From positions 11,962-75,961 of the IMG/VR virus record IMGVR_UViG_3300050821_003659: DNA of 64,000 bases; one strand, given 5' to 3'. Origin of the DNA: a virus. Numbering within the stretch: position 1 is the stretch's first letter; each line of letters begins with the position of its first letter. This document shows positions 39,900 through 58,200 of this stretch, piece by piece. A program made the position numbers and the translations under genes. The notes under the pieces are model-generated. The model did not search any database. It was given only the letters and a program-made list of their open reading frames with translations, and was not told where the DNA came from.

Positions 39900-40270
39900 C
39901 TATAGAACTTACAGAGGCAAGGCCCACCGACTGTGCGTGGGTGTTCTGAGGCACGAACGAGTAGCACCGTCTAGTCCACGCGTGCGATGCGGTCGTGATA
40001 GGAGCGAACAGCACAGAGGGTCAAAGCCGCCGAGACAGTAGCGAAGGGCTGGCTGTAGGGTGCCGCACGGGGAGGAATCCCATCCGAAAGGTAAACGTGA
40101 GACATCGTCTGACACCGAGGAGTGCGGATCGGGGAGCAAACGCCCGTGCCGTAAAAGAGAGAACCGAGTATACAGCACGGTGGGGATCGACTCCCGCTGC
40201 GTGCGACAGCCTCTCATCACTTCGTTGACGATGCCAAATGCTGATGCGTCCTACCCTACCGGAACAAAAA
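39900..40270 (+). ncRNA. Candidate large structured RNA
   Basis: GNRA hairpins, a T-loop, several AGTA/GAA pairs and long-range helices; no credible ORF. Confidence 0.5.
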
Positions 40271-40302
40271 CAAAGTGGGGAGAAAAACATGGAGAGAATA
40301 TC

Positions 40303-40695
40303 ATGACTACCAAAAGTTCACGACGCAACATCGTTCGCGATGTCGATGGCGACCGCTATCTGCTCACCTCACGTCGCATCGTCCAGATGGACAGTGCGGA
40401 CGCGAAGGAAGGCACACCGTGGTACGCGTACAATGCCGAGATCAAACGCGTCACGGCTGACGGCATCGAAGGCTTCAACCTCATCAACGTCTCGTCTCGT
40501 GTGAGCACTGACAGCAATGCGACCATACGTGTGCAGGTTCGTTTCGGCAAGACATCCGACGAAGCGAAGGGCCTTCATATCGGGACGTATCAGATCGGCT
40601 GCGGTCACTTCACCCGCAAGACGTTTCTGCGTATCCTCAAGAACGCTGGTGTGCAGACCACCAAGAAAGCGTTCGCAGCAGTGGCGGGCTTATGA
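40303..40695 (+). CDS. Hypothetical protein, tail KKAFAAVAGL
   Basis: GGAG RBS. Confidence 0.7.
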   Translation: MTTKSSRRNIVRDVDGDRYLLTSRRIVQMDSADAKEGTPWYAYNAEIKRVTADGIEGFNLINVSSRVSTDSNATIRVQVRFGKTSDEAKGLHIGTYQIGCGHFTRKTFLRILKNAGVQTTKKAFAAVAGL

Positions 40696-40976
40696 AGACC
40701 CTAGCCCAAGAGTACGCCGAGTACTCGCGGCAGCAAGCAGGTGACGGTTCTGTGAGTCCGACAGTCGATACTGGTTTTCGAATGCCGCCCACTGAACCCT
40801 TCACCTACACGCCGCGACCGAATCCCCCGACCAAGGAACTCTGGGACATCGACACCGTCCACGAGGACGACATCACCTCGAAAGAGTCCACCGGAATCCG
40901 GGGTATCAACTTCATCACCATCGACGTTGCGAAGGCACGAGCACGAAAGAACCAGTTGACACCTGTGCTACAATAG
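40692..40976 (+). CDS. Hypothetical protein
   Basis: ATGA overlap. Confidence 0.55.
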   Translation: MKTLAQEYAEYSRQQAGDGSVSPTVDTGFRMPPTEPFTYTPRPNPPTKELWDIDTVHEDDITSKESTGIRGINFITIDVAKARARKNQLTPVLQ

Positions 40977-40989
40977 TTCAGGAGGAAAC

Positions 40990-41304
40990 ATGGCTCGTTT
41001 ATCGAAGCGTACGAAACCTGAACCCGTCCCCCAGACTGATGCGGTCGTCGGTCGCGATCTGATCGAACACTACCGCAAGCAGAGCGAAGAACAGGCGGAC
41101 AAGCTGACCGAGGGTGAAGCCTGCCAGTACTGGGATGACGGCTGGCGTTACGGGCACATCGAGAAGTTGCCCGATGCAGATGAACCGAAGTACGGACAGG
41201 TGAGGATCGTGCATCAGGTCACAGGCCGCGTCTGGGTTCCAGCACGTGATGTGAAGCCGATGAACCAAGAGTGGGAGCAGTACTTTGCGTGGAGGCGGGA
41301 ATGA
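40990..41304 (+). CDS. Hypothetical SH3-like protein
   Basis: AGGAGG RBS. Confidence 0.7.
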   Translation: MARLSKRTKPEPVPQTDAVVGRDLIEHYRKQSEEQADKLTEGEACQYWDDGWRYGHIEKLPDADEPKYGQVRIVHQVTGRVWVPARDVKPMNQEWEQYFAWRRE

Positions 41305-42377
41305 GTCTGGTCATAAAGCGTTACCCTGATCTTTCGCCGCCCGTGCTCTTTTATTCTGGCACGGAATCGTTGCGGTTCAGTGAGGCTCACTGGCTCTGGC
41401 TCCGCGAGACGACGACAGGTCTGGTGCCGTTGGACGGTGTCACGACCGTTTTGAAAGCAACACACAACGCAGCCGAGCCGCTCATCAACTGGGCACTGCG
41501 TCAGGGCTTCGACAAGTTCAAGGCGATGTTGTCGAAACACATGGGGCCGAATCATGCGTACGAACTCTGGGAAACGGAACTCGACAGTCTCATCGTTGAG
41601 GCAAAGAAAGCTGCAAAGGAAAAACTCAATGACGCTGGTGATGTTGGAACGCAAGCCCACCGCCACCTTGAAAAAGTTGCCAAGGCGACTCTTGGCTCTG
41701 ATACACGAAGACTTGCTGAGCTAATCGCCCTGATGCCGGAAGACCCGCGTGCCGAGTCCTGCGTCATCGCGGCGATCCTCTGGTGCGTCGAGCACGACAT
41801 CGAGTGGATATACTCAGAACGGCCCGTGTACCATATAGACCACGGGTACTGCGGCACGCTGGATAACGTCGCGTGGGCGTCAAGCTGCAAGAACCCGCTC
41901 TGTTGCCCCACACCGTTCACACGGCGTCGGGTGCAGGTCGATTACAAGAGTTCGAATGCCCTGAGGGTAGAATATTGCCTTCAAACAGCGGCGTACACCG
42001 CTGCTCTCGAACGCGAGAAACCGGACGAGGTGATCGATGACAGGTTCATCCTCCGACTCGATAAAGAGACGGCGGCGTTCGAACCGTGGCACCTTGAGGG
42101 CCGAGATTTGCAGAAGCAAGACTTCGCGGCCTACCTCGATGCCCTAGCCTGTTTTCGGTCTGGGCGTGCGGTCGAGGCCCGGATGAACACTATCCGCGAG
42201 GTTCGGCGGGCGGCTGAGAGGGAGATCAAGAAGGCGGCGAAGGAAGCTGCCCACCGCAAGGAATGCCCGAAGGCGGCTGACTACAAGGGTTCCCGGCTCA
42301 CGAAGTGCTTCGAGGACGGGACGCAGTGCGAGGCGTGCCGTGCAAAATATATTGCGAATCACCCAGAAAACAGTTGA
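41301..42377 (+). CDS. PD-(D/E)XK exonuclease
   Basis: GVTTVL, GTQAH, SERPVY, YCGTLD, VDYKSS and LQTAAY motifs. Confidence 0.85.
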   Translation: MSLVIKRYPDLSPPVLFYSGTESLRFSEAHWLWLRETTTGLVPLDGVTTVLKATHNAAEPLINWALRQGFDKFKAMLSKHMGPNHAYELWETELDSLIVEAKKAAKEKLNDAGDVGTQAHRHLEKVAKATLGSDTRRLAELIALMPEDPRAESCVIAAILWCVEHDIEWIYSERPVYHIDHGYCGTLDNVAWASSCKNPLCCPTPFTRRRVQVDYKSSNALRVEYCLQTAAYTAALEREKPDEVIDDRFILRLDKETAAFEPWHLEGRDLQKQDFAAYLDALACFRSGRAVEARMNTIREVRRAAEREIKKAAKEAAHRKECPKAADYKGSRLTKCFEDGTQCEACRAKYIANHPENS

Positions 42378-42402
42378 CACGGTACACCAGTTCTGTCACT
42401 AT
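42374..42402 (+). promoter_or_regulatory. Sigma70-type promoter
   Basis: TTGACA-17-CACTAT. Confidence 0.7.
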
Positions 42403-42418
42403 GAATGTAGGGGGGAAC

Positions 42419-43042
42419 ATGCAAAAATTATATCGCGGTGAACTGGTCGAGGTGATCGAGGAGAGTGGTTCCCTCGTTCGAGTGCGGTACGCCAATGGCG
42501 ACGAAAGCAACTGGTTCCCGGCTACCCTGCTGAAAGAACCGAAGCCTGTGAAGCTGCGAATCTCCCGAGACGCCGACTACGAAGCCGCCGTCACCGAAGG
42601 TCTGACGCACTTCTACACCGTTGACACGTTCGACCGAGACGAACCGAAGCTGAACATCCCCGAGTACAACTGGCTGAAGGTTGAACTTCAGTCTCGCGGA
42701 TACGTCATCACCGTTTACTCCGCAACGAAAGACGCACAGAAGACGGCTGAGACGCTGGCGACTCTGGCGGGTGTCACTGCGGAGCAAGCGTTGCCGTTTA
42801 TCACCGTGCGAGATCGCAAGGGTGGGCCGAAGTGGAACGTTGACTTCGCAAACTTTCCAGCGTTGAACACCTCCGTGCGTGACCTGCTCGAAGTGAACTT
42901 CGGGCACATGCGTGCGAAGGGACGCAAACCGAACATCCGTAAAATCCGCATCGGCTCAACGAAGCTGGTGCAAAAACTTATCAGCGAGGGCTTCACCGTC
43001 ACGAAGCGGTCGGAAGAGACTTCGCAACTGGAGGGGAAATGA
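42419..43042 (+). CDS. Hypothetical protein
   Basis: ORF after the promoter; SH3-like N-terminus. Confidence 0.7.
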   Translation: MQKLYRGELVEVIEESGSLVRVRYANGDESNWFPATLLKEPKPVKLRISRDADYEAAVTEGLTHFYTVDTFDRDEPKLNIPEYNWLKVELQSRGYVITVYSATKDAQKTAETLATLAGVTAEQALPFITVRDRKGGPKWNVDFANFPALNTSVRDLLEVNFGHMRAKGRKPNIRKIRIGSTKLVQKLISEGFTVTKRSEETSQLEGK

Positions 43043-43794
43043 CTTTCACCAAAGGACAGATCGTGTATCACCCCACGCTGGGTAAAGGCGTCGTCGGTTT
43101 AGTGGATGAGAAGGTTCGCGTCAAGTGGGCGGGGCAGAAGTTCGAGAACTGCTATCTTCCCTCAGCGAACGTTCTGTCTGAGTTGATCGACAAACCTGTC
43201 AAGGCTGGCAAGCCCCCTGTGCTTCCGCCTGATCTAACACAGATCAAAATCGCGGGCGACGACTCTGGGTTTCAGTTTCCTGACGAGCAGAAACTTCTGG
43301 CACTCATCGAAACGAAGCGGGTGCCACGCACCACAGCGTATGAAGAGACGAGCCGTCTCGCGTATCTACTGCGACCGGACTCTCTCAAACTCGCAGACTC
43401 TGCTAAGGCTGCGGAGGAAGACGCACACACAGTTGTGTTCGAAGCGATACAGCAGGTCGGCGGTGTCTTCACGACGGTGCCCGCACAGACTGCGGTCGCC
43501 GCTGACGGACAGAAGACTGAAGTCGGTGAACTGTACCTGAACGTCTTCGCTGAGAAGAAGATCGTGGTCTGGCTGCGTACGTCGCAACCGAACGCGTCTC
43601 AGTCCAAGTTTTATACGTTCGTCCGTGATGAGGTGCTGCCTGTGCAGTTTCCGGGCTACACCGTGTACGTCACGACTCACGGGGATGTGCCGTCAAAGAA
43701 TCCCTCTGTCAACGTCCGAGCACGCGACATGTGGACGGCAGTCACGGGGCATGTCGGAGCGTATGCTCGACTCGAATCTCTGTTCACTTACTAG
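43039..43794 (+). CDS. Hypothetical protein
   Basis: GGAGG RBS; FTKGQIVYHPTLGKGVV SH3/Tudor-like N-terminus. Confidence 0.75.
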   Translation: MTFTKGQIVYHPTLGKGVVGLVDEKVRVKWAGQKFENCYLPSANVLSELIDKPVKAGKPPVLPPDLTQIKIAGDDSGFQFPDEQKLLALIETKRVPRTTAYEETSRLAYLLRPDSLKLADSAKAAEEDAHTVVFEAIQQVGGVFTTVPAQTAVAADGQKTEVGELYLNVFAEKKIVVWLRTSQPNASQSKFYTFVRDEVLPVQFPGYTVYVTTHGDVPSKNPSVNVRARDMWTAVTGHVGAYARLESLFTY

Positions 43795-43984
43795 GAGGCA
43801 TCATGCTGAATCGTTTCTACTGGATCGGACTCAAGTCGCAGCCGTCGAGTTTTTCCTCTCGTCGCAACCGCTCTGGTCAACTGACCGAGCACATCGAAGC
43901 CATCCGCGAGAATCTTCTGCGTGCCGCTGAGGTACTCGCCCACATCGGAGAGCAGCCCGCTCAACTGCTGCTCACTGAGGGAAA

Positions 43985-45175
43985 ATGAACTTCTATACCT
44001 ACATCGGACTGACGCCCACGGAGTTTCAGGAGCAGTACATCGATGCAGGGTACGTGTCGATGCAGAAGCATCACGAGTTTCCGCTGGCGATCTTTGCCTA
44101 CGCACGCGACACCGTGAAAGAGCAGAAGTGGGATCACGTCACCTCGCGTTGCCGTGGCATCGTCATCAACACAGAGACAGGTGAGATCGTCTCTCGCCCG
44201 TTCGAGAAGTTTCACAACTACGGCAGCGAACTCGGCTGCATGGACACTCTGGGTGAGATGTTGAACGGTCACGAGCCGACCATCTGGGAAAAGATGGACG
44301 GGTTCATGTGTACTCTGTATACGTGGCAAGGCGTTGACTACATCGCGTCGAAGGGATCGTTTCACTCGATCCACGCGAAGTGGGCGACCGCGTGGCTACG
44401 GAAAAAGTTTAGCACCTCTCTTGGCATCCCTGCGGGCCACACCGCTGTGTTCGAAGGGCTGCACCGCGATCTGCGGATCGTCGTTGACTACGGGCTGCGT
44501 CAAGAACTTGTTCTTCTCGCGATCATCAACAACGAGACAGGAGAAGAGTTTTCGCCCGGAGCACTGTTCGCGTTCGCGGACAGCAAGGGCCTGTCAACTC
44601 CGAAGCCGTACAACATCGGACTAGACGCCGCCGTTCGAATCACAATGGCGACTGGCGTCTTCGAAGACGGAGGAGACGAGGGCTTTGTGCTCACGTGGTA
44701 TCAGAAGGGCCAACCGCCCTTCCGCTTGAAGTTGAAGTACATCGAGTACCTGCGACTGCACCGGATGGTCACGGGCGTGTCTCCCAAACGCATCTGGGAA
44801 GTTTTGGCGAACAACCAATCGTCAGAGTTGGACGAATACCTCAAGCAATCGACTCCGTGGTTCAGTGCCTTCGTCAACAAATGGCTGAAGGCCCTGACAC
44901 TGGAGTTCAAACGAATCGAGAAGGAAGTGGAGACACGCTACGCGTTCTCAGGCGTGAACCCGAATGACTTCCTGCAACCAAACAACACCGTCCCTGTGGA
45001 CTTCGCTGGGCTGCGGAAAGCCTATGCCCTGAAGTTCACGACCGAAGAGAACAAGCCGTACTCGGCGGGGCTGTTCGCACTGCTGGATGGCAAGGACATC
45101 AAGCCTGTCATCTGGAAGATGGTCAAGCACATGACTGCCGGGGCGAACCCGATGGTCGATGCACACAACACATAG
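43985..45175 (+). CDS. RNA ligase, T4 Rnl1-like
   Basis: CRGIV, RPFEKFHN, EKMDG (motif I), SKGSF, EGFVL and KLK motifs. Confidence 0.9.
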   Translation: MNFYTYIGLTPTEFQEQYIDAGYVSMQKHHEFPLAIFAYARDTVKEQKWDHVTSRCRGIVINTETGEIVSRPFEKFHNYGSELGCMDTLGEMLNGHEPTIWEKMDGFMCTLYTWQGVDYIASKGSFHSIHAKWATAWLRKKFSTSLGIPAGHTAVFEGLHRDLRIVVDYGLRQELVLLAIINNETGEEFSPGALFAFADSKGLSTPKPYNIGLDAAVRITMATGVFEDGGDEGFVLTWYQKGQPPFRLKLKYIEYLRLHRMVTGVSPKRIWEVLANNQSSELDEYLKQSTPWFSAFVNKWLKALTLEFKRIEKEVETRYAFSGVNPNDFLQPNNTVPVDFAGLRKAYALKFTTEENKPYSAGLFALLDGKDIKPVIWKMVKHMTAGANPMVDAHNT

Positions 45176-45183
45176 GAGGAAAC

Positions 45184-45525
45184 ATGGCAACAAAAATCCG
45201 TAAGTTCAAGGTCGTGAAGCCGACCCTCAAGGCTGTACAGGCACAGTTTGCCGCGTACAAGGTGAACGCTCTGGCTCTCATCAACAAGTTCCGCTATGCC
45301 GGGGCTGAGACGTTCTTCTCGGTGAAGGGATACGAGAAGGTCGAAGGCAAGCTGAAGCCGAACGTCATCAACGTGCCCGAGCTACTCGCCATCGTTGGCA
45401 CAGCGAAGCGTCTGGGCAAGCTGGTTGTCCTCACGACTTCCGGCGTGGAAGACGGTGGACAGGTGAACGTCCTGCTGCAAGACGATCCGTCTCGCGTCGT
45501 GATCCCATCTGAACTGACGTACTAG
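45184..45525 (+). CDS. Hypothetical protein
   Basis: AGGAGG RBS. Confidence 0.7.
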   Translation: MATKIRKFKVVKPTLKAVQAQFAAYKVNALALINKFRYAGAETFFSVKGYEKVEGKLKPNVINVPELLAIVGTAKRLGKLVVLTTSGVEDGGQVNVLLQDDPSRVVIPSELTY

Positions 45526-45533
45526 GAGGAAGC

Positions 45534-46025
45534 ATGCGTAAGGACACACTCGCTGCGGGGGCACGCTCCGCAAAGTTTGCTGGCGGCGTCGGAGAGAACG
45601 ACATCGACCGGAACATCATGAGCGACGAGGATCGTGCGGCACTCGAAGCTGAGACGGCTGCGGTCGTCGTAGAGAAGACGGCGGCACCGAAGAAAGTGTT
45701 CCGTCCTCTCGGCACGACTCTGCTCATTCGCCGCATCTCTGAGGAAGAGTTGTCGAGCGTCCTCATCACCGAGACTATCGAGAAAGAGAAGCCCGCAGAG
45801 GGCACCGTTCTCGCAGTCGGCAAGAAAGTTGTTGACACGGTCGTCGGTGATCGCGTAGTGTTTGGCAAGTACAGCGGCACCGAGTTCAAGCTGAACGGCG
45901 AAACGCTGCTCATCATGGACGAGGCAGATATCAAGGGCTTCATCGAAGACGAGAACCTTCCGGCGTCGAGCGTAAACTTTTCAAGCACGTACGAAGTCGG
46001 CGGCTGCATCGTCGCCCGAGCGTAA
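45534..46025 (+). CDS. groES: Co-chaperonin GroES with terminal extensions
   Basis: FRPLG...KEKPAEGTVLAVG...VGDRVVFGKYSGTEFKLNGE. Confidence 0.9.
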   Translation: MRKDTLAAGARSAKFAGGVGENDIDRNIMSDEDRAALEAETAAVVVEKTAAPKKVFRPLGTTLLIRRISEEELSSVLITETIEKEKPAEGTVLAVGKKVVDTVVGDRVVFGKYSGTEFKLNGETLLIMDEADIKGFIEDENLPASSVNFSSTYEVGGCIVARA

Positions 46026-46031
46026 CCCGGA

Positions 46032-46110
46032 GGGCACGTAGGGGAGTCTGGTCGTCCCTGCCACCTTGTCACGGTGGAGATCATGGGTTCGAATCCCATC
46101 GTGCCCGCCA
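46032..46110 (+). tRNA. tRNA-Asp(GUC)
   Basis: Cloverleaf; CCACC-TTGTCAC-GGTGG; GCCA end. Confidence 0.9.
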
Positions 46111-46121
46111 TAGGAGAAAAC

Positions 46122-46838
46122 ATGGAACCGAATATCCCAGCGGTCGTCGGAGAAGTCGAAGCTGGGCGTGCCGCGAAGGTACGCCGCGAGATCAACAAAC
46201 TCATCAAGGGTGTGAACACCAGCAACTTCGATCTGATGGACTTGCTGTTCGAGGCGAAGACCAATCACTACTACTCGCCTGAGTACGAATCTTTCAGCAA
46301 GTACGCGAAGTCTCTTGACATCAAGTACACCAAGAGCTACTATCTCGTGAAGATCAGGGCACTGATGCAGGGTGTCGGTCTTGAGCGGGCAGCGTACGAG
46401 CCTGTCGGAATGGGCAAGCTGCGTGTCATCTCGAAGCTGAACCTCGAAGGCGAGTTCAAGGGTGTTCCGATGCCCCTCGTCATCAAGGAACTGACCGAGA
46501 AGGCACTGCACATGTCTCTCGAAGATGTCACGTTCGAAGTCGATACGATCCTCGGACTCACAGAAGACGAGTCGATGGTCTGGCTGAACGTGCACCTGAA
46601 AAAGCTGGCCCGCGACAACGCGGTGAAGCCCGCTCTGGCTCTGGCGAAGAAGCACATGCCCGAATCACAGACAAAGGACGACGATGGAAACTTTGTCGAT
46701 CCCGGCGACGGTGCCGCACTCGAAATGATCTGTGCGAACTTCCTCGCTGATCCAAACTACAACCCGACCGACGAACAGGTCGCCAACGAACAGCCCGCTG
46801 AACTTGAACCCGAAGACGAACAAATCCAAGACGCATAG
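46122..46838 (+). CDS. Hypothetical protein
   Basis: AGGAG RBS; ALEMICANFLA motif. Confidence 0.75.
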   Translation: MEPNIPAVVGEVEAGRAAKVRREINKLIKGVNTSNFDLMDLLFEAKTNHYYSPEYESFSKYAKSLDIKYTKSYYLVKIRALMQGVGLERAAYEPVGMGKLRVISKLNLEGEFKGVPMPLVIKELTEKALHMSLEDVTFEVDTILGLTEDESMVWLNVHLKKLARDNAVKPALALAKKHMPESQTKDDDGNFVDPGDGAALEMICANFLADPNYNPTDEQVANEQPAELEPEDEQIQDA

Positions 46839-46847
46839 AGGTGACGC

Positions 46848-47882
46848 ATGGCAGTTCGCACACTCGATCCGAAGCGACAGAGTTACAAAGCTGAGGCACT
46901 CGCGTCACGCCTCTCCCTCCGCATCGTCGGACAGACGGGGCCGACACAGGCCCTCCTCTCCGCAATCGCAAAGTATCAGAGCGGCTTCTACGACAAGACG
47001 AAGCCTATCTTCAGCATGCTTGGACTGGGGCCTACGGGCGTCGGCAAGACTGGCGTGTTTGAAGCCTTCGCGGAGGGCCTGTTCGGTTCTCCGAAGCACA
47101 TGCTGAAGGTTGACTGTGCGGAGTTTCAGCACAGCCACGAGATCGCAAAGTTGGTCGGCTCTCCTCCCGGATATCTCGGACACCGTGAGACGCACCCGTT
47201 CTTTACGAACGCGTCTCTCGCGGCTCTGCGGACTCCTGAGCTAGACTTCACCATCGTTCTCTGGGACGAGATCGAGAAGGCAAGCGACTCTCTCTGGAAT
47301 CTCCTACTCGGCATCCTCGACAAAGGGACGCTAACCACGGGGACGAACGAGAAGGTTGACATGACGAAGACGGTTCACCTCATGACCAGCAACGTCGGCT
47401 CTGCGGACATCAGCGACGAGGCATCTATCGGCTTCGACGCTGGACAGAAGCAGATGACCGACCAGCAGGTGAGCGACACCGTGATGGCTGCGGCACGCCG
47501 CAAGTTCATGCCCGAGTTCCTCGGTCGTCTGGACGAGATCGCGGTGTTCAAGACTCTGACCGAGTCTGAGATCGCAGAGGTGCTGGGGCTGCAACTGAAC
47601 GACCTGAGCGACCGCATCATGCTCAGTGCACCTGTACCTTTCGAGTTCAACGTGTCGCCCGCTGCTATCCGGCAACTGCTGAAGGAAGGATACGACAGGC
47701 GATACAACGCACGCGGTTTGAAGCACGTGATCGAGAAGCACATCGCCCTCCCCCTTGGACGGCTGATGTCAACCGGACAGGTGATGCCAAATGACATCAT
47801 CATCGTGGACTTCGACCAGAACTGGAAATACTATGCCCAAATCCCCCTTGCCCGAGCCGCTGCGGAAGGCGATATACTTTAG
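46848..47882 (+). CDS. Single-domain Clp (ClpA/B/C D2-type) AAA+ ATPase with an IGF loop
   Basis: GPTGVGKT, GSPPGYLG pore loop, WDEIEKA, MTSNVG, SIGFD, PEFLGRLDE and NARGLK. Confidence 0.9.
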   Translation: MAVRTLDPKRQSYKAEALASRLSLRIVGQTGPTQALLSAIAKYQSGFYDKTKPIFSMLGLGPTGVGKTGVFEAFAEGLFGSPKHMLKVDCAEFQHSHEIAKLVGSPPGYLGHRETHPFFTNASLAALRTPELDFTIVLWDEIEKASDSLWNLLLGILDKGTLTTGTNEKVDMTKTVHLMTSNVGSADISDEASIGFDAGQKQMTDQQVSDTVMAAARRKFMPEFLGRLDEIAVFKTLTESEIAEVLGLQLNDLSDRIMLSAPVPFEFNVSPAAIRQLLKEGYDRRYNARGLKHVIEKHIALPLGRLMSTGQVMPNDIIIVDFDQNWKYYAQIPLARAAAEGDIL

Positions 47883-48105
47883 GGATGAGTGGAAGTGCCG
47901 TCACTGCGGCAACCGTCAAACGCTAGACCCCCATCACGTCGAGTATCGAAGTGCTGGGGGCGAACATTCAATGACCAACCTGCTCACGCTATGTCGTAAG
48001 TGTCACGACGATGAGCACGCGGGACGACTCCGAATCGAAGTTCTGGACGTGCTGACCAACGATCTCCGCGTGAGATTCTGGCGGCTGAAAGGATGGAAAC
48101 CATGA
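47833..48105 (+). CDS. HNH endonuclease
   Basis: RDEWKCRHCG...HHVEYRSAGG....NLLTLCRKCH. Confidence 0.9.
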   Translation: MPKSPLPEPLRKAIYFRDEWKCRHCGNRQTLDPHHVEYRSAGGEHSMTNLLTLCRKCHDDEHAGRLRIEVLDVLTNDLRVRFWRLKGWKP

Positions 48106-48683
48106 GCGGACTACCGAGCAGTTCTCTGGGAGAGGTACTCTTCGGCGGCGACGTGCTACCGGATGGACAGACCGTCGTGAACGCGTTGGCAAAAAAGAAA
48201 CTGAATGATCCCCTCAATGATGAAGTCGCGGCGATCACTCGCAGTGTGCAACACGACTATGATCTCGATGAGCCGAACTCTGACCGAGCGATCAAAGAGG
48301 CCGAAGACAACAACCTCGAAGTGATCTTCCCGGCTGAGAATCAGTTGCTAATCGACATCGACAGCGACCGAGCCTTCGACGTGTACATCGCGATGAAGCC
48401 TCTGCTGGAGAAGTACTACGGCATCCGCGAAGAGAAGGTCGCGTACAGCCGAAGCGGTACACCAAAGCGGCACATCACCGTCGATCTGTTCAGGACGATC
48501 ACCAACGAAGAACGCATCACACTGCAAGTGATGATGGGTTCCGACCGCGTGCGGGAGTTCCTTGGACTCATCCAGTTGGGCAACGGTGATCCGCACCCCG
48601 TGTTGTTTTTAGAAAAGAAGCCTGAGGTGACCAATGCAGGATCGACCGTATCAGATGGAAGCGGAGCAAGCGACCCTCAGTGA
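48102..48683 (+). CDS. Hypothetical protein
   Basis: LLIDID...SRSG...H, weakly reminiscent of AEP motifs. Confidence 0.6.
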   Translation: MSGLPSSSLGEVLFGGDVLPDGQTVVNALAKKKLNDPLNDEVAAITRSVQHDYDLDEPNSDRAIKEAEDNNLEVIFPAENQLLIDIDSDRAFDVYIAMKPLLEKYYGIREEKVAYSRSGTPKRHITVDLFRTITNEERITLQVMMGSDRVREFLGLIQLGNGDPHPVLFLEKKPEVTNAGSTVSDGSGASDPQ

Positions 48684-50298
48684 ATACGACAAGGGCGTGC
48701 GTCGGATGATGCACGTGATGGCGACCGGGACTGGCAAGACAGTCGTGTTCTCCAAGCTGTACGAGGCGATGAAAAGTCGATTGCCCGGACAGATGTTAGT
48801 CGTGGCACACACCGAGGAGTTGGTGAAGCAGAACGCCGACGCGATGCTGGAGTGGAATCCGGGCATCAAGGTCGGCATCGAGATGTCAGGATCGTACGCC
48901 GATGAAACGGGCGACGATGTCATCAGCACCTGCGTTGGAACGCTAGGTCGAAAGGATACCAAACGTGTCAGTCGATTTAATTGGGACAACGTGGACAAAG
49001 TCGTCATCGATGAGGCTCATCATGGGGTCACGGATGGATATCGCCGCATCCTTGACGCGGCAGGAAGCCTTCACGCTGATACTCATAAGCTGTTGCTGGG
49101 CGTTACTGCGACTCCGAACCGTCCTGACGGCGAACCCCTTTCGGACTTATTCGAGAAAGTCGCTTACGTCTATTCAATCAGACAGGCGATCAAAGACAAG
49201 TGGCTCGTCCCGATTCGAGGATATCGAACCGTAACAGACACGAGTCTGGCTGATGTGTCGAGCAATGACGGCGACTTCGTCAAAAGTGAACTGTCCGCTG
49301 CGGTGAACAACCACAAGCGGAACAATCAGATCGTGGACGTGTGGATGGCGAAGGCCGAGGGCCGACGCACGCTGTGCTTCACCGTTGACATCGAGCACGC
49401 CAAGGCACAGGCTCTGGCGTTCAACATCCGGGGCGTCGAAGCCGCCGCAGTCTGGGGCGACGATCCGATGCGGGCTGAGAAACTGGAGGCGTTCCGTGAA
49501 GGAAAAATTCGTGTACTTTGTAACTGCAATCTGCTCATTGAGGGTTTCAACGATCCGGGCATTGCGTGCGTACTACTTGCTCGTCCTACCCAAAGTGGCA
49601 TCCTATTTACCCAGATGGTAGGTCGCGGCACCCGACTGTATCCGGGCAAGCTGGATTTGATCGTGATCGACGTTGTGGACGGCACCACGAAGCACACACT
49701 GCTCACGCTGCCGACACTGATGGGCATGCAAGCCTATCTCGATCTGAAGGGCCGCTCGTTGCTTGAGGTGGTCGAGGAGTTGGAGGCACTGAAGGAAGAA
49801 CATCCGGGCGTGAACTTCGACAGTCTGGAGTCGATGGAGAAGGCGGCTTGGCTCATCGAGCAGGTCGATCTCTTCCAGATTCGATTCCCCAAGGAAGTCG
49901 AAGAGAACAGCGAACTGATGTGGTTCAAGGCGGTTGACGGCGGATACAAGATGCTCGTCCCCAAGGAAGGCGACACGCGGGCGGGCTTCCTGAAAGTTTA
50001 CGAGAACGCCATTGGTCGCTGGGAACTGGTAGGCCGGATCAACGACGTTGAATTGCACGGCACGCGTCCGACGATGGAAGAGATATTCAAGGTGAGCGAC
50101 GAACAGGTTCGCAAGCGTGTGAACAAGATGACGCTCACCAAGGTTCTGCGTGAGGCAACGTGGCACGGCAAGCCTGTCACGAAGGGCCAGCGGAAGATGC
50201 TGGAGCAGTTGTTCCCTCACAAGCAGTTCCTGTACGACCAGATGAACTCGGGGCAAGCCTCGAAACTCATCAGCGAAAGATTAGCGAGGAAGAAATGA
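48634..50298 (+). CDS. Superfamily 2 DEAH helicase
   Basis: RPYQ, ATGTGKT, DEAHH, TATP and QMVGRGTR. Confidence 0.95.
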   Translation: MQDRPYQMEAEQATLSEYDKGVRRMMHVMATGTGKTVVFSKLYEAMKSRLPGQMLVVAHTEELVKQNADAMLEWNPGIKVGIEMSGSYADETGDDVISTCVGTLGRKDTKRVSRFNWDNVDKVVIDEAHHGVTDGYRRILDAAGSLHADTHKLLLGVTATPNRPDGEPLSDLFEKVAYVYSIRQAIKDKWLVPIRGYRTVTDTSLADVSSNDGDFVKSELSAAVNNHKRNNQIVDVWMAKAEGRRTLCFTVDIEHAKAQALAFNIRGVEAAAVWGDDPMRAEKLEAFREGKIRVLCNCNLLIEGFNDPGIACVLLARPTQSGILFTQMVGRGTRLYPGKLDLIVIDVVDGTTKHTLLTLPTLMGMQAYLDLKGRSLLEVVEELEALKEEHPGVNFDSLESMEKAAWLIEQVDLFQIRFPKEVEENSELMWFKAVDGGYKMLVPKEGDTRAGFLKVYENAIGRWELVGRINDVELHGTRPTMEEIFKVSDEQVRKRVNKMTLTKVLREATWHGKPVTKGQRKMLEQLFPHKQFLYDQMNSGQASKLISERLARKK

Positions 50299-50645
50299 GA
50301 CTAGACACACTGCATCTGTCAACAGGTGAGAAGGTCGCACGTTTCTGGCGTGAGCACGCGGCGTGGTCACAGGAGACGTTCGGCACCGACCAAGAGCGAG
50401 GGCCTATCGGGGCACTCAAGCATCTGGCAAAGGAAGCTGTAGAAGCACAGGCCGACATCAGCGACCGTTCAGAATTTGCGGACTGTCTCTTCCTCACCTT
50501 CGACGCGGCACGTCGTGCGGGTATGACGCTCGATGACCTGATAGACGAGGCGTTTGCGAAGCTGGAGAAGAATCGGAAACGCGTTTGGGCTAAGCCCACC
50601 AACTCGGATGAGCCGATTGAGCACGTCCGAGGCATCCATGACTAG
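50295..50645 (+). CDS. dATP/dGTP pyrophosphohydrolase (DUF550/MazG-like)
   Basis: WSQETFG...GPIGALKHLAKE...EFADC...DAARRAG. Confidence 0.8.
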   Translation: MRLDTLHLSTGEKVARFWREHAAWSQETFGTDQERGPIGALKHLAKEAVEAQADISDRSEFADCLFLTFDAARRAGMTLDDLIDEAFAKLEKNRKRVWAKPTNSDEPIEHVRGIHD

Positions 50646-51063
50646 CAGTGAGAAGGCGAAGGACAAACGCCTTCGCGAGATTTATAATCAGACACTGGAG
50701 GAGCACAATGCAAAACGCCAAGAACAACTCAACGCCTGTGCCATCTGTCGTCGTTCCTTCACCCAGTTCCAACCCTACCAAGACCACGATCACGCGTGCT
50801 GTCCCCGGCGACAGAAACGTTACTGTGGCAAGTGCAACCGGGGTCTGCTTTGTTTCCTGTGTAACAAAAAAGTCGTAGCGTGGATCGAGTACGCTCGAAA
50901 GGTTGGCATCGACCCTCACGTCGCCATCAAGTACATTGACGACTGGACGGTGAAGATTCGTGCGAAGGGCGGCTATGAACAAAAAGAAGAAAGTCCCAAA
51001 CTTCGGAAAGCAAAAAAGAGCGTTCGATCAAGTGCTCGAAGCCTATCGAAAAACAAGGGCTAA
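50638..51063 (+). CDS. Endonuclease VII-like protein
   Basis: CAIC...DHDH...RGLLCFLCN. Confidence 0.85.
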   Translation: MTSSEKAKDKRLREIYNQTLEEHNAKRQEQLNACAICRRSFTQFQPYQDHDHACCPRRQKRYCGKCNRGLLCFLCNKKVVAWIEYARKVGIDPHVAIKYIDDWTVKIRAKGGYEQKEESPKLRKAKKSVRSSARSLSKNKG

Positions 51064-51379
51064 CGTCACTCTCATTGGATGCGTGAACATCAACCCCAGC
51101 GGAGGTGGTGGAGGATCGGTGGACAAGGCAAAGCCGCTGCCTTCAGAGTTCCGCTGCGATGTCGAGCGAGTGGTCGAGGCTCTGGTCGCGACCAAGTATC
51201 ATCTGCACTTCTGGGCGGCGTACACGTGGTACGACAGCGACGACGCTCTCGACCGCGAGATGTTCGCACAGAAGATGCTAGGCGACAGGCGGCATTCGTG
51301 GGAGCAGCGATTAGGTGCCAAGTTCATCGAGATCGGGCTTCACCCGCCGACTCTTTATTTCCGTCACAAGAGGGTCTGA
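50975..51379 (+). CDS. Hypothetical protein
   Basis: Open frame with operon packing. Confidence 0.65.
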   Translation: MNKKKKVPNFGKQKRAFDQVLEAYRKTRANVTLIGCVNINPSGGGGGSVDKAKPLPSEFRCDVERVVEALVATKYHLHFWAAYTWYDSDDALDREMFAQKMLGDRRHSWEQRLGAKFIEIGLHPPTLYFRHKRV

Positions 51380-51975
51380 TGAAATATCCTCGTCGCAAGG
51401 TCAAACGCACGAAACACGGCGACTATGAACGGGTTGTCAAGTTTCCCGTCTGGTCTGGTTATCAGGTTCACGTCATTTTCACGAACGACATCGCGGCGTC
51501 TCGCAAGGCCCGCTACGGATCGGCTGGAGCGTCTGAGGGTGCCCGAGCACTGCATTCGAGTGCAGAGGGTGGACACAGTCATCTGTTCTTCAGGATCGGC
51601 AACTCTCCTGCGGGTGTGATCTCGCACGAGTCTTGGCACGCGATTCGTTGCATGATGGTGGACTTCGGTGGAGTCACAATCATGGAGAACGAGGTGACCG
51701 CGTATCACCTCGGCTACCTCACGCAAGAAGTCGTCAGCTTTCAGATCGATCTGATGGACGCAAAGATTGGAGTTAAATCTAGCAGTAGAAAGAAGGCAAC
51801 ACATGGCAACAAAGATTCACAAAGGTCTGTGGCTGGAATGCAAGGTGTGCCCACACACTCCCGAGGAGTTGGAACTGAAAAAGCGGGAGAAGCGGGAACG
51901 CCTGAACCTTCGTCGCAAGCGGATGGACACGGGGGCGACCTTGGATACCGTCGTGAGACGACAGGTGGCCTATGA
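51379..51975 (+). CDS. HExxH-containing hypothetical protein
   Basis: ISHESWHAI...NEVTAY. Confidence 0.65.
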   Translation: MKYPRRKVKRTKHGDYERVVKFPVWSGYQVHVIFTNDIAASRKARYGSAGASEGARALHSSAEGGHSHLFFRIGNSPAGVISHESWHAIRCMMVDFGGVTIMENEVTAYHLGYLTQEVVSFQIDLMDAKIGVKSSSRKKATHGNKDSQRSVAGMQGVPTHSRGVGTEKAGEAGTPEPSSQADGHGGDLGYRRETTGGL

Positions 51976-52291
51976 GCTAGGCGGGCCTGACGCCGAACCA
52001 ACGAAGGATGAGAAGTTTCAAATCCTTCAGAAGTACGGCATCGCAGCGGCACGGATCGACCGAGGAGTGAAGAAACCCACATGGATGACGGAGGCAGCAT
52101 GGAACCAGAAACGAGCGGAGTTTTACAAGGCGACAGCGGGGCTAGTCCCGAAGGAACAGTTCAAGCGGAGCAACCGACCGCAGCCGAACCAAAGCCGTAC
52201 GGGGGACTCACGCCCGAGGAACTCGAACGCATCCCACCGGAGTTTCGCCCGGACAAAGACGGCAAGTACCCCGCGATCACCCCGCAGCTAA
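51803..52291 (+). CDS. Hypothetical basic protein
   Basis: Open frame with a purine-rich RBS; overlaps both neighbours. Confidence 0.55.
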   Translation: MATKIHKGLWLECKVCPHTPEELELKKREKRERLNLRRKRMDTGATLDTVVRRQVAYELGGPDAEPTKDEKFQILQKYGIAAARIDRGVKKPTWMTEAAWNQKRAEFYKATAGLVPKEQFKRSNRPQPNQSRTGDSRPRNSNASHRSFARTKTASTPRSPRS

Positions 52292-52746
52292 TCCGGGCGA
52301 TGCGTGGGAAGTACTTCACGGTGCGTCACGTCCTCCTGACCAACTGCGGTCACCGGATCGACATGATAAACCAGCCGAAGAATAACTGTGAGAACTGCTG
52401 GTTTCAGTGGTTCAACACTCACCCTCAACTCGTGGAGACGGCGGATCAGTTCTTCCGCACCCACGGCAAAGGCCCGCTCATCGGTATGCGTGGTCAGAAG
52501 TTTTTCAAGATGTTCGTTCGCTATATGGCGACGGTCATCCACTTCATGAAGCAGGAGGCGGAAGCCAAGGCAGCACTGGAGAAAGCAAATGAGTCTGGTA
52601 GTCAAGAACAACCCACAGGACAACCAACCAGTTCTACACCAGCAGCAAGCGGTGAAAGCGAAAGCGGAGAAGTTGCCGCCAGTAGCACCCCAGTTGTCGA
52701 AAGCGGAGAAGCTGAAGGCAATCGAGGGGCTGACTCGGTCGTTTAA
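52081..52746 (+). CDS. Hypothetical protein
   Basis: CGH...CENCW core; start possibly slightly downstream. Confidence 0.6.
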   Translation: MDDGGSMEPETSGVLQGDSGASPEGTVQAEQPTAAEPKPYGGLTPEELERIPPEFRPDKDGKYPAITPQLIRAMRGKYFTVRHVLLTNCGHRIDMINQPKNNCENCWFQWFNTHPQLVETADQFFRTHGKGPLIGMRGQKFFKMFVRYMATVIHFMKQEAEAKAALEKANESGSQEQPTGQPTSSTPAASGESESGEVAASSTPVVESGEAEGNRGADSVV

Positions 52747-53788
52747 CACCGAGTACGAAACACAACTGATCCAGAAGCTGGGCAAGAAGACGGGCGTTCG
52801 TCTCCCTTGCCTAGTCTCTGGGATGCCAACGTTCGATGAGACGCTGATGTCCTGCGGGGGAATGCCTCGCGGTCGCGTCATCGAAATTTACGGGCCTGAA
52901 TCATCCGGCAAGACGACTCTCGCTCTGCACTTCGTGGGAATGGCACAGAGGCTTGGCGAGTACGCGTTGTTCGTTGACGCGGAGCACGCACTCGATCCCA
53001 ACTACGCGAAGACGCTGGGCGTCGATGTCGATAACCTCGTCATCAGCCAGCCGGATTACGGAGAGCAAGCGTTGGAAGTTGTCGATGCTGCACTCGATAC
53101 ACGGGCGTTCGGCGTGATCGTCGTTGACTCAGTCTCGGCTCTGGTGCCGAAGGCTGAACTCGAAGGCGACATGGGCGACAGCCACATGGGTCTGCAAGCA
53201 CGACTGATGTCACAGGCGATGCGTAAGCTGGTCGCCAAGGCACACCGTGCGAACTGTCTCGTCATCTTCATCAATCAGGTGCGTGAGAAGATCGGCGTCA
53301 TGTTCGGCAATCCCGAAGTCACGACTGGCGGACGTGCGTTGAAGTTCTGGTCGTCGGTGCGTCTCGAAGTTCGTCGTCTCTCGAAGACAGACGGCGGCGA
53401 GATCAAGGACGAGCAGGGTACGCACATCGGTCACAAGATGCGGATCAAGAACGTGAAGAACAAGGTCGGCCCGCCGTTCCGTGAGACTGTGGTCGATCTC
53501 TATTACGCGAAGGGCTTCGATCTGAAAGCTGATACAATCACCTACGCCATCTCAATCGGTGCCGTGGTCGAGGGCGATCAGACGAAGGAAGACGTGAAGA
53601 ACGGCACAGGCAACGGAGTTCCCAAGGGCTGGTACGGCTTCGGTGGTGAAAATTATCGAAGAATGGACTTGACACAGGAACCCCTGTATGCGAAGATTCA
53701 AGTAGAGGCAATGGCTCGAAGGGACGTTATGCTGGCTGCGGCAGCGAAAGCGGCAACCGACTCCGTCCCCCAGACACCAGCCTCATAA
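52589..53788 (+). CDS. recA: RecA recombinase
   Basis: GGMPRGRVIEIYGPESSGKTT, DAEHALDP, GLQARLMSQAMRKL and TTGGRALKF. Confidence 0.97.
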   Translation: MSLVVKNNPQDNQPVLHQQQAVKAKAEKLPPVAPQLSKAEKLKAIEGLTRSFNTEYETQLIQKLGKKTGVRLPCLVSGMPTFDETLMSCGGMPRGRVIEIYGPESSGKTTLALHFVGMAQRLGEYALFVDAEHALDPNYAKTLGVDVDNLVISQPDYGEQALEVVDAALDTRAFGVIVVDSVSALVPKAELEGDMGDSHMGLQARLMSQAMRKLVAKAHRANCLVIFINQVREKIGVMFGNPEVTTGGRALKFWSSVRLEVRRLSKTDGGEIKDEQGTHIGHKMRIKNVKNKVGPPFRETVVDLYYAKGFDLKADTITYAISIGAVVEGDQTKEDVKNGTGNGVPKGWYGFGGENYRRMDLTQEPLYAKIQVEAMARRDVMLAAAAKAATDSVPQTPAS

Positions 53789-53844
53789 ACGGGGTGTTTC
53801 AGAACATCGAACCCCTAAAGCCTTATATACAAGGCAACCAACAC

Positions 53845-53981
53845 GTGAGTGTTGGAGAGCATCTCGGCTGGCAAGGCCCAAGGGGTCGCTGGTCTGGTGA
53901 TGCCTCCCACACCGTGGAGGACGCAACCTCACCGTCTTGCCCTGTTGCGAGGGAATGACAGGGGTGCTCTCCAACACTCAC
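53845..53981 (+). ncRNA. Structured RNA closed by a 19-bp stem
   Basis: GTGAGTGTTGGAGAGCATC/GGTGCTCTCCAACACTCAC. Confidence 0.6.
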
Positions 53982-53996
53982 CATCTAGGAGGAATC

Positions 53997-54269
53997 ATGT
54001 CGAAGAAGCAGAGCAAGAAGCCCGCCCCGGTTGTCGTGCGTGACCCACTGAAGGATGCGAAGTTCGCATACTTCTCCGTCTGTTGCAACGAAGTGGCGAA
54101 GAAGACGCCGCTCGTGGCAGCGAACCGCATCACCCAGACGTATCTGGGTGCGAAGCCTGAGGCCGAAGGCACGCTCGGCTCGTGGCGTTGCTCGAAGTGC
54201 AACAAGCCGTGCAAGTGCACACGGCACGTCCGCAAGGTGGAGGAGAACAATGGAACCAAAGAAAGCTAA
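53997..54269 (+). CDS. Small Cys-rich protein
   Basis: AGGAGG RBS; SVCC...CSKCNKPC. Confidence 0.7.
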   Translation: MSKKQSKKPAPVVVRDPLKDAKFAYFSVCCNEVAKKTPLVAANRITQTYLGAKPEAEGTLGSWRCSKCNKPCKCTRHVRKVEENNGTKES

Positions 54270-55392
54270 CCATCAGGCCAACGTCGTGCGGATCGAGAAC
54301 CTCCGTCCGCACCCAGACCCAGAGACGACGAAACTCGAACTGACTGACGTGGGCGGCTATCAGATCGTTATCGGCAAGGGCAACTTCAAGGTGGGCGATC
54401 TCGCTGTGTACGTCCAGCCTGACTCCGTTGTTCCGCAGACTGAGCCGTTCAAGTTCATCTGGGGTGAGCACGTCGGCATCGATGGCACAGTGCCCGAACG
54501 TCGGCGTCGTATCACTGTCAAGCGGCTTCGCAAAGAGTTCAGCGAGGGGCTGCTGTTGCCTATCGGAGACTTTGCAGTTACGGCGGGCAACACCACATCC
54601 ATCGCGGATGAGTTGACCCACGAGGGTGCAGATGTCAGCGAGTTGCTGGGCATCACGCACTGGGTTCCGGCGTTCGACAAGGAATCGACTGCGGCTGAGA
54701 CGGCTGCTGCTCCGAAGCGTCGTTACCCGAAGACTCTGAAGGGCTGGTTCTTCTGGACGCTCTACAAGCTGGGCTTCAAGAAGGCGGGCCGCTCTCTCGC
54801 ACAGGAAGTCGCGTTCAACTATCCCATCTACGACGTGGACGCATACAAGAATCACAAGAACTGGGTGCCTGAGGGCACGCTGGTTCAGATCACGGAGAAG
54901 ATACACGGGTCGAATGCCCGCTACACCTTCACCGAGGGCGTCTTCTACGCTGGCTCTCACGAGCAGTGGAAGCAGGACGGTGCGAACGTTTGGTGGAAGG
55001 CCGCACGGCAGTTCCCCCAGATCGAGAAGTGGTGCCGCGAGAATCCGGGGCTGGTGCTCTATGGCGAAGTAGGCCCGACACAGGGCGACAACTTTCGCTA
55101 CGGGGCGAAGAACGGCGAGGTGTTCTTCTTCGCGTTCGACGTGTACGACCCTAAGGCTAACACGTGGACGTTCGCGGGCGATGCGGGGTTCTCTTTCAAC
55201 CTCTGCGTCCCTGTCTACTCGACCGGAGCATCCTTTGGGCCAATCGTCTTTGCGTGGGTTGATGGACAGACGACAGTGCCCGGAGCCACTGGCATCCGCG
55301 AAGGTGTCGTGATCCGCATCGTCGGCAACACGACAACACGTGGCAAGCTGAAGATCGTGAGCAACAAGTTTCTGGAGAAAGACAACAAATGA
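54250..55392 (+). CDS. RNA ligase, DRB0094/Rnl2-like
   Basis: N-terminal OB-like module (FKVGDLAVYVQPDS, SEGLLLP), TEKIHGSN, LYGE, FDV and REGVV. Confidence 0.85.
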   Translation: MEPKKANHQANVVRIENLRPHPDPETTKLELTDVGGYQIVIGKGNFKVGDLAVYVQPDSVVPQTEPFKFIWGEHVGIDGTVPERRRRITVKRLRKEFSEGLLLPIGDFAVTAGNTTSIADELTHEGADVSELLGITHWVPAFDKESTAAETAAAPKRRYPKTLKGWFFWTLYKLGFKKAGRSLAQEVAFNYPIYDVDAYKNHKNWVPEGTLVQITEKIHGSNARYTFTEGVFYAGSHEQWKQDGANVWWKAARQFPQIEKWCRENPGLVLYGEVGPTQGDNFRYGAKNGEVFFFAFDVYDPKANTWTFAGDAGFSFNLCVPVYSTGASFGPIVFAWVDGQTTVPGATGIREGVVIRIVGNTTTRGKLKIVSNKFLEKDNK

Positions 55393-55544
55393 TCGCACTG
55401 ACAATAGCAGGGAGCATCGCTTCCATCCTCGGACTCGGCGTCTCCCTCTATGTTCTTGTGCGAGAGTTGCGAATCGAAAACGAAGTTCACATCCTGAAGA
55501 CTGAAGAGGAGCAATGGCATGATGAGCAAAACGTTCGCCGCTAG
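55389..55544 (+). CDS. Small single-TM protein (possible lysis accessory)
   Basis: 51-aa ORF with a hydrophobic N-terminus; ATGA overlap. Confidence 0.5.
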   Translation: MIALTIAGSIASILGLGVSLYVLVRELRIENEVHILKTEEEQWHDEQNVRR

Positions 55545-55932: not shown

Positions 55933-56088
55933 AAATAGGCATCGAGATCGGGCACGACGAGAAGTACCTCACCTCAGTCAATGGCTGGGTGAGATCGAGT
56001 TGGTACATCACGGTGTCGATTCCCTGTCGTGTGCAGTGGGACATGGAGTATCACTGGGGTTGGAAGAGTCGAACGTGGAGGTGGTATC

Positions 56089-56610: not shown

Positions 56611-56618
56611 GAGACTGC

Positions 56619-57423: not shown

Positions 57424-57628
57424 GAGACAACATGATTCGAGATAGTCAACGACAAGACTGGCAAGCACTGGTCGATTATTTAACCCCCTTCGGCAACGGG
57501 GCCTGTCTGAACTGTCTGGTAGAGGATGGCCCTGATGACGTGACAGACTTCAAGGGGCTGCTTGAGAAGTTCAAGAAAGACGACGAGGAGGCAACATGTT
57601 CACACCCGCAGGGAGTGGAGGAGGAAGC

Positions 57629-58120: not shown

Positions 58121-58121
58121 C

Positions 58122-58194: not shown

Positions 58195-58200
58195 AAAACG

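Follow-up and report, generated by a model that had tools for sequence, protein, structure and literature searches.

A single-ring Clp ATPase in a soil phage of Acidobacteriota, and phage proteins whose C-terminal tails resemble the phage tmRNA tag

ClpA, ClpC and ClpX dock on ClpP through a loop that carries a tripeptide of the [LIVM]G[FL] type, and the ClpA loop grafted into ClpB suffices for ClpP binding. The pore of ClpX reads the C-terminal ssrA tag and MuA-type tails directly, and these are the textbook degrons (PMC12723719). Clp genes, GroES and transfer-messenger RNAs (tmRNAs) are already known from jumbo phages: Bacillus phage G carries ClpX and ClpP together with a tmRNA (PMC12484599), and the Sinorhizobium jumbo phage AP-J-162 carries Clp genes, GroES and a tmRNA (PMC11242549). 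Here we analyze a stretch of 64,000 nucleotides from a viral record (IMG/VR IMGVR_UViG_3300050821_003659, positions 11,962 to 75,961), called the window below, and in particular its open reading frame (ORF) at 46848-47882, which encodes a single-ring Clp/Hsp100 AAA+ ATPase. An earlier note, made from the sequence alone, had proposed that this ATPase, a phage tmRNA and a set of tag-like protein tails make up a phage-private proteolysis circuit that acts through host ClpP; as a whole, that interpretation is partly supported. The best overall explanation, to which we assign a probability of about 0.5, is a one-ring unfoldase that works on host ClpP, with tag- and tail-bearing proteins as its best candidate clients.

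Like phage G and AP-J-162, the window phage combines Clp components, a co-chaperonin and its own tmRNA in one genome. Unlike these jumbo phages, which have ClpX and ClpP or long Clp proteins, it is a phage of about 95 kb. New relative to them are the absence of ClpP from a phage whose one-ring ATPase belongs to a family without curated entry, a tag that is unlike the tags of the host phylum, and phage proteins that mimic this tag and are restricted to the unfoldase-bearing lineage. The viral record containing the window is 75,961 bp long, with an estimated completeness of 80%. Its major head protein is 83% and its portal protein 61% identical to those of Tunturiibacter phage Tunturi_3, a cultured phage of 97.6 kb with an Acidobacteriaceae host (Tunturiibacter psychrotolerans), and the window phage is a soil phage of Acidobacteriota. 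tmRNA, Clp and chaperonins go unmentioned in the description of Tunturi_3 (PMC11924767). Our Tunturi-like set comprises 16 genomes or large fragments, namely the record itself (G000) and 15 others, the close ones having been reached through the major head protein. A megablast search with 20 kb of the window (40000-60000) found no near-identical phage in the deposited-phage collection.

The ATPase gene (46848-47882, plus strand, 344 amino acids) is an intact Clp/Hsp100 ATPase that consists of the second AAA+ module only. Pfam searches matched AAA_2 (PF07724, E 3.6e-35, 121.9 bits against a cut-off of 27) and ClpB_D2-small (PF10431, E 2.7e-12, 47 bits against a cut-off of 21.9) and gave no match for an N-domain, D1 or M-domain, which bears out the D2-only architecture claimed in the earlier note, as well as the SIGFD and GYLG motifs that it had located. 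No NCBIfam model was passed: the ATPase scored 186 bits against ClpA (cut-off 993), whose two rings and N-domain it does not have, 229 bits against full-length ClpB (TIGR03346, cut-off 1232) and 33 bits against ClpX (NF003745, cut-off 359), from whose type of module it differs. That the ATPase might be a fragment of ClpA, ClpB or ClpC was rejected, as over 8,000 proteins of comparable length match it and it belongs to a separate clade.

In an alignment of 32 homologues (A1), the Walker A motif GPTGVGKT (residues 61-68, G61 to T68; 47028-47051, plus strand) is invariant, as are D140, E141, E143 and K144 of the Walker B motif WDEIEKA (residues 139-145; 47262-47282, plus strand), sensor-1 T180-S-N182, the arginine finger R227, sensor-2 A288-R289 and the tyrosine of the pore loop. 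The pore-1 loop and the family signature that follows it, GSPPGYLGHRETHP (residues 104-117; 47157-47198, plus strand), are likewise invariant in the 32 homologues; GYLG occupies residues 108-111, and the aromatic pore-1 loop GSPPGYLG is present in 118 of 120 homologues. An AlphaFold model built with the 32 homologues has a predicted local distance difference test score of 86.7 and is disordered at residues 192-200, within which the IGF motif lies, and in the last six residues. The top structural neighbours of the model are ClpC chains from ClpC-ClpP complexes (template modelling, TM, scores of 0.76-0.78), and ClpB NBD2 is also among them. By sequence, the best relative in the PDB is the D2 domain of ClpC (E 3.5e-55), followed by ClpB D2 and ClpA.

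The closest described module is thus the D2 ring of ClpC and ClpA (PDB 6em9, 3j3t, 9gi1, 1ksf; E about 1e-55, TM 0.76-0.78), with which the phage ATPase shares the AAA_2 plus D2-small fold, the catalytic motifs, a tyrosine in the pore loop and, in the same alignment column after sensor-1, a hydrophobic-Gly-Phe/Leu loop. Unlike ClpC and ClpA, it has no N-domain, D1 ring or middle domain, so that the usual adaptor sites (MecA, ClpS) are missing; it also reads GYLGHRETHP after the pore loop, where they read GYVGY-EGGQLTE, and it falls in a clade of its own. With ClpX it has in common a single AAA+ ring and an IGF loop at the ClpP-docking position, but it lacks the zinc-binding N-domain and has a module of the Hsp100 D2 type. 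Human CLPB/Skd3 and the isolated ClpB NBD2 resemble it in consisting of a D2-type module alone (PDB matches with E 1e-34 to 1e-52). Skd3 is a disaggregase with ankyrin repeats and no known ClpP loop; the phage ATPase, in contrast, has the loop and no extra domain.

The loop in question, S-I-G-F-D (residues 193-197; 47424-47438, plus strand), contains the candidate ClpP-docking tripeptide, identified by its alignment column and its conservation. Aligned with ClpA, ClpB and ClpX of E. coli MG1655 and with named ClpC and ClpB proteins, the phage IGF shares a column with IGL617-619 of E. coli ClpA and with LGF of ClpC, and E. coli ClpB is gapped there. At the level of sequence, then, the phage ATPase has the tripeptide that follows the D2 sensor-1 in ClpA and ClpC. 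The earlier note had named a lack of conservation of this motif as grounds for refuting the idea, and the motif proves to be universal: among 119 homologues, position 194 is I (65), L (45), F (5), V (3) or M (1), G195 is present in every one, and position 196 is F (117) or Y (2), giving [ILFVM]-G-[FY] in 119/119 while the flanking residues vary freely. Almost all distant phage and cellular members of the family also retain the hydrophobic-G-[FY] loop. The disorder of residues 192-200 in the model fits the flexibility expected of a docking loop. The matches to the ATPase include structures of ClpB with the grafted loop, PDB 4d2q and 4d2x, which carry the title 'BAP form bound to ClpP'. A complex prediction for the ATPase (alignment A1) with two copies of ClpP from Acidobacterium capsulatum gave a score of 0.28 against a mark of 0.32 and counts neither for nor against docking. 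The ATPase ring probably docks on host ClpP.

ClpP itself was found neither in the phage's own record, nor in related records, nor in any of the 16 Tunturi-like genomes or fragments, nor in six records of distant phages that bear the family. All five Acidobacteriota genomes that were checked, each of which carries a cellular one-ring homologue, have ClpP. A search of 49 phage records with Clp-type ATPases yielded a clear ClpP in 11; these records are of 125-369 kb and encode long Clp ATPases of 660-844 amino acids, with a recognisable x-G-F loop in 9 of the 11. A 368-kb jumbo phage, G018 (locus L025, 222727-223757), has a clear ClpP gene (E 3.4e-59) with a one-piece tmRNA (66 bits) no more than about 130 bp behind it.

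The one-ring ATPases form a family, here called the 'GYLGHRET' family, with a D2-only architecture, the signature GSPPGYLGHRET[HS]P just after the pore loop and the hydrophobic-G-[FY] loop, all of which the phage ATPase possesses; in place of the signature, ClpA, ClpB, ClpC and the long forms of jumbo phages have GY[VI]GY-EGGQLTE. A quick maximum-likelihood tree placed all one-ring forms in one clade (support 100), apart from both the ClpA, ClpB and ClpC D2 domains and the long Clp ATPases that jumbo phages encode. We found neither a curated family that names this group nor a paper that describes it. Scanning one genome per prokaryotic species identified 80 loci, nearly all of them in Acidobacteriota (Pyrinomonadaceae, Blastocatellia, Acidoferrales, Terriglobia and Bryobacteraceae), and many lie on megabase contigs amid housekeeping genes. 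The 80 chromosomal homologues are 45-49% identical to the phage ATPase and 380-557 amino acids long (median about 405); all 80 carry GSPPGYLGHRET, the [IMFL]-G-F loop is kept, and no ClpP or ClpX gene was found within 6 kb of any of the 80 loci. Because homologues sit both in Acidobacteriota chromosomes and in many phages, the family is at once cellular in the host phylum and viral. Among the matches listed, the closest metagenome relatives of the phage ATPase are 65-71% identical, and those from scans of IMG/VR and metagenomes are mostly 30-57% identical; no record in the deposited-phage collection that was searched has a relative above 38% identity.

Some members of the family depart from the basic form. 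Many of the relatives with 700-850 amino acids (P0122, P0125-P0128, P0131-P0143) are one-ring ATPases with an intein (Hint, LAGLIDADG), and P0123 is a one-ring ATPase fused to TPR repeats. On a Pyrinomonadaceae chromosome (L391, 8832-9632, minus strand), genes for DnaJ-domain and HEAT-repeat proteins lie just downstream of the cellular ATPase, possibly a chaperone context. The ATPase of G002 (L002), a 'virus' record of 455,708 bp, nests in the chromosomal Acidobacteriota clade of the quick tree, and this record may therefore be a megaphage with a recent host-derived copy or may be partly cellular DNA.

A tagging RNA encoded by the phage, as the earlier note supposed, is confirmed by both ARAGORN and Rfam (RF04321, 73.7 bits), which identify a permuted, two-piece tmRNA at 13124-13544 (plus strand). 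ARAGORN reads its tag frame as AETKPLAMAAAAGR followed by a stop codon (13409-13453, plus strand), and the frame is kept in relatives, with endings AMGAAAGR, AMAAAAGR, AFAAAAGR and AFAAAA. Across the Tunturi-like genomes, the type of tag ending splits exactly with the ATPase, five against eight. In genomes that have the ATPase the endings are AMAAAAGR (G000, the window phage, and G051), AMGAAAGR (G001), AFAAAA (G050) and AFAAAAGR (G057); in those that do not (G052-G056, G058, G061 and Tunturi_3) they are ELVMA, DLVMA, DLVLA, AMLLAA, GLVMA, FAYASA, QLLAA and ATMLAA. ARAGORN missed the permuted tmRNAs of G005, G008, G053, G054, G058, G060 and Tunturi_3 and misread that of G061; all of these were taken from Rfam matches and their tags were read by eye against the aligned tmRNA of the window phage. 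Distant phages that bear the family also have permuted tmRNAs, with tags mostly of the A-M-x-A-A type (AMGAAAGC, AMAMAAAA, LAMSAAA, FAMAA, TMSAAA), the exception being G008, whose tag ends YANA. Three records of low-GC T4-like phages, whose backbone is unrelated and two of which are closely related to one another, have the tmRNA on the strand of the ATPase and 70-640 bp upstream of it. ARAGORN detected a tmRNA no more than 10 kb from the ATPase at just 2 of 160 loci, to which Rfam added one record, so that the two are immediate neighbours in one low-GC lineage only. The five Acidobacteriota genomes have ordinary one-piece tmRNAs; four of their five tags end ALAA or AYAA, and the fifth read differently.

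Three proteins of the window end in peptides that resemble this tag. The last 8 residues of each of the 118 predicted proteins were scored against the last 8 of the tag (BLOSUM62, ungapped). The tails ending at 33304, 37713 and 40695 scored 19, 24 and 20, and among 20,936 internal 8-mers none reached 24, two reached 20 and three reached 19; thus three tag-like tails are observed where 0.017 would be expected among 118 proteins. The proteins are one of 154 amino acids with no assigned function that ends LAAAAAAGGD (32840-33304, plus strand), a short tyrosine-recombinase-like protein that ends AFAAAVGK (37231-37713, plus strand; PF00589, E 1.4e-16), and a further protein with no assigned function that ends KKAFAAVAGL (40231-40695, plus strand; its start is uncertain, the longest ORF beginning at 40060). 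The excess was replicated in G001, G050 and G051, and controls with scrambled tags were mostly unremarkable. In G001 the recombinase ends AFAAAVGR, and a 125-amino-acid protein just upstream of GroES, which has no homologue in the window, ends AKAAAAGR (46198-46575 of G001; 6198-6575 of L108). With one fixed yardstick, the five ATPase-bearing genomes together have 8 tag-like tails against 0.56 expected, and the nine complete or large genomes without the ATPase (G052-G056, G058, G059, G061 and Tunturi_3) have none against about 0.7 expected. Internal tag-like, alanine-rich 8-mers are equally frequent in genomes with and without the ATPase.

Conservation of the tails is seen in the p154 and p211 families as well as among orthologues of the recombinase, and in two of the tail-bearing families the tail persists although the sequence next to it changes. 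Of 22 homologues of the 154-amino-acid protein, 19 end AAAAAGG-x or a near variant, after a linker that varies in length and sequence; 9 of 12 short-protein matches to the protein ending at 40695 end in an alanine-rich -AG[AVL], such as KKAFAA[KQV][AV]G[AVL] or a near variant of it; and recombinase orthologues end AFAAA[VA]G[KR] in ATPase-bearing genomes only, their ends being diverse elsewhere. What the tails share is A-[F/M/L]-A-A-x-A-G-x at the extreme C-terminus. The tails did not arise as DNA-level copies of the tag, as their codons differ. They resemble ssrA-like 'C-motif 1' degrons in being short, alanine-rich, placed at the very C-terminus and similar to the tmRNA tag of their own genome; unlike canonical degrons with a hydrophobic-Ala-Ala-COOH end, the tag and the tails finish in Gly-x (G-R, G-K, G-L or G-G-D). 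The earlier note had counted the ATPase's own C-terminus as a fourth such tail, and here it was mistaken. That end, ARAAAEGDIL, scores below 0 against the tag and is kept only in relatives of at least about 64% identity, so that we rejected it as a degron. The final 50-90 bases of the ATPase gene (47791-47882) are shared with an HNH endonuclease ORF that runs in a different frame, and this overlap may be the reason for the odd, poorly conserved tail.

Among the reporter tails proposed in the earlier note was also GRRFR. Six otherwise unrelated proteins of the window end G-R-[RK]-[FM]-R (15402-16067, 26126-27718, 27860-28789, 33865-34662, 34536-35717 and 35714-36208). Their G001 orthologues end G-R-K-[IV]-R, and the tails are conserved. 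G-R-[RK]-x-R tails are equally found in relatives without the ATPase, at 0-3 per genome, and therefore belong to another system; they are not supported as clients of the ATPase. These tails recall the basic C-terminal ClpX degron of the MuA type (RRKKAI).

The ATPase has a regular companion in a GroES-like co-chaperonin (45534-46025, plus strand; Cpn10 E 3.6e-14, phrog_3188), whose presence nearby the earlier note had correctly reported. Both genes are present in G000, G001, G050, G051 and G057 and both are absent from G052-G056, G058, G061 and Tunturi_3, in which the flanking p254 and HNH genes are present; in all, they are co-present in 5 and co-absent in 11 of the 16 genomes or fragments, and we therefore regard them as an accessory pair. 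The order GroES, tRNA-Asp, p254, ATPase, HNH endonuclease, a further gene of no assigned function and helicase is common to the close relatives. The transfer RNA (tRNA) gene, tRNA-Asp, lies between GroES and p254 (46032-46110, plus strand; ARAGORN and Rfam). The backbone gene p254 is directly upstream of the ATPase (46122-46838, plus strand) and encodes 238 amino acids with no assigned function and no match to a Pfam or PHROG family; an ATPase-specific adaptor role was rejected, as phages encode homologues whether or not they have the ATPase. The HNH endonuclease is also a backbone gene (47833-48105, plus strand; PF01844, E 5.1e-09), and relatives that lack the ATPase carry it 0.1-1.2 kb downstream of p254, on the same strand. 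In the distant relative G003 (66570-68023; L082, 335-1820), a permuted tmRNA lies directly upstream of the p254 homologue, the position that GroES and tRNA-Asp occupy in the window phage. Tunturi_3, which has no ATPase, encodes beside its own tmRNA a 112-amino-acid RF-1-domain protein (gp125; record positions 82469-82807, L194 32469-32807) that resembles an ArfB-type rescue factor.

Taken together with the loop and the tails, these observations suggest that the gene encodes an active single-ring Clp/Hsp100 unfoldase of a distinct family, which may have been acquired with GroES in the Tunturi-like subclade, the two forming an accessory proteostasis pair on either side of a backbone gene. Six copies of the ATPase would form a ring, and its flexible I-G-F loops would enter the hydrophobic pockets of ClpP, which would have to be that of the host because the phage has none. 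The ring would thread proteins through the GYLG pore into ClpP and would thereby give the phage a protease specificity of its own. Proteins with C-terminal A-[F/M/L]-A-A-x-A-G-x would be the best candidate clients, the phage tmRNA adding AMAAAAGR to stalled chains and three phage proteins encoding a like peptide. The hexamer, its docking, its recognition of tag and tails and the degradation that would follow are inferred. Recognition of the phage tag and of the tag-like tails by the ATPase is a good hypothesis, although less likely than not, and a complete private degron channel, in which tmRNA and genes share the A-[F/M/L]-A-A-x-A-G-x form and the phage's own unfoldase reads it while borrowing host ClpP, is a rather speculative extension.

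Several observations weigh against this reading. By the identities of portal (70-88%) and terminase (65-83%) to those of the window phage, as compared with 55-63% and 45-52% in genomes without the ATPase, the ATPase-bearing phages make up one monophyletic subclade, so that a single ancestor may account for ATPase, GroES, tag type and tails alike, and the split of five against eight may represent one event rather than thirteen. Among genomes at least 89% complete, a tmRNA is present in 5/5 with the ATPase and also in 7/8 relatives without it; the RNA is therefore independent of the ATPase. The ATPase occurs without a tmRNA in G004, a complete phage; G057 combines the ATPase and a GR tag with no tag-like tail, G050 has tails although its tag ends AFAAAA without GR, and no tag-like tails were found in the distant ATPase-bearing phages G003-G008 and G013. 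Cellular members of the family coexist with ordinary ALAA or AYAA tags, from which it follows that the one-ring family needs no unusual tag. The co-occurrence of this ATPase with atypical tags, which the earlier note had put forward as a check, comes down within the Tunturi-like phages to one subclade. Only two lines of independent support are available: unrelated phages also pair the ATPase with a tmRNA, and the tails themselves are under selective constraint.

The monophyly of the ATPase-bearing genomes, the missing tails of G057 and those of the distant phages would also be accounted for if the tag and tails were read by a host protease, an adaptor or another phage protein, or if the Gly-x cap served to evade host ClpXP, the tie to the ATPase being one of shared ancestry. 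This is possible, although the ATPase is the only Clp-type component found to be specific to the subclade, it is paired with a tmRNA in unrelated phages (as a direct neighbour in three records), and tails are lacking where the ATPase is lacking even though internal alanine-rich 8-mers are equally common there. The strict co-presence or co-absence of ATPase and GroES, together with the lack of a ClpP gene near the ATPase in the phage and Acidobacteriota loci examined, would suit a ClpP-independent chaperone or remodeller that acts with GroES in phage assembly or host takeover, its G-F loop making some other contact; single-ring D2-type Hsp100 proteins that act without ClpP do exist, as in human CLPB/Skd3 (PDB match E about 1e-34). 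We consider such a role unlikely, since a hydrophobic-G-[FY] is kept family-wide at the ClpP-loop position while its flanks are free, and since E. coli ClpB, which does not bind ClpP, has no loop at that position; Hsp104 and Skd3 are not known to have the ClpP loop either.

The same conserved docking-type loop, in a phage without ClpP, could instead belong to a decoy, a ring that blocks host ClpXP and ClpAP and so shields phage proteins and tagged chains; phage proteins with ssrA-like ends would otherwise be at risk. A passive plug needs neither catalytic motifs nor a pore tyrosine, and as both are invariant here a decoy is very improbable. Finally, alanine makes up 8.8% of the predicted proteome of this 56% G+C genome, and alanine-rich tails might be thought to arise by chance. 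Three tails against 0.017 expected, their replication in G001, G050 and G051, their conservation and the mostly unremarkable scrambled controls leave this explanation next to no probability, and at the level of sequence statistics it is already refuted. The one-ring unfoldase on host ClpP, with tag- and tail-bearing proteins as candidate clients, accordingly stays the best overall explanation of the locus.

Were the private degron channel real, the phage could schedule the breakdown of its own proteins and of stalled chains without relying on host ClpXP or ClpAP. If the ATPase docks on host ClpP and reads the phage's tag, it would show how a virus re-aims a host protease. The pair of 344-amino-acid unfoldase and tag of about 8 amino acids would in that case be a natural, compact, orthogonal degron-unfoldase system, with a possible use in controlled protein degradation in bacteria. 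The natural presence and absence variants around the cultured Tunturi_3 and its host, T. psychrotolerans, make the question directly testable. Beyond the phage, the ATPase belongs to a large and as yet unnamed family of one-ring Clp proteins in the Acidobacteriota, which are among the most abundant soil phyla.

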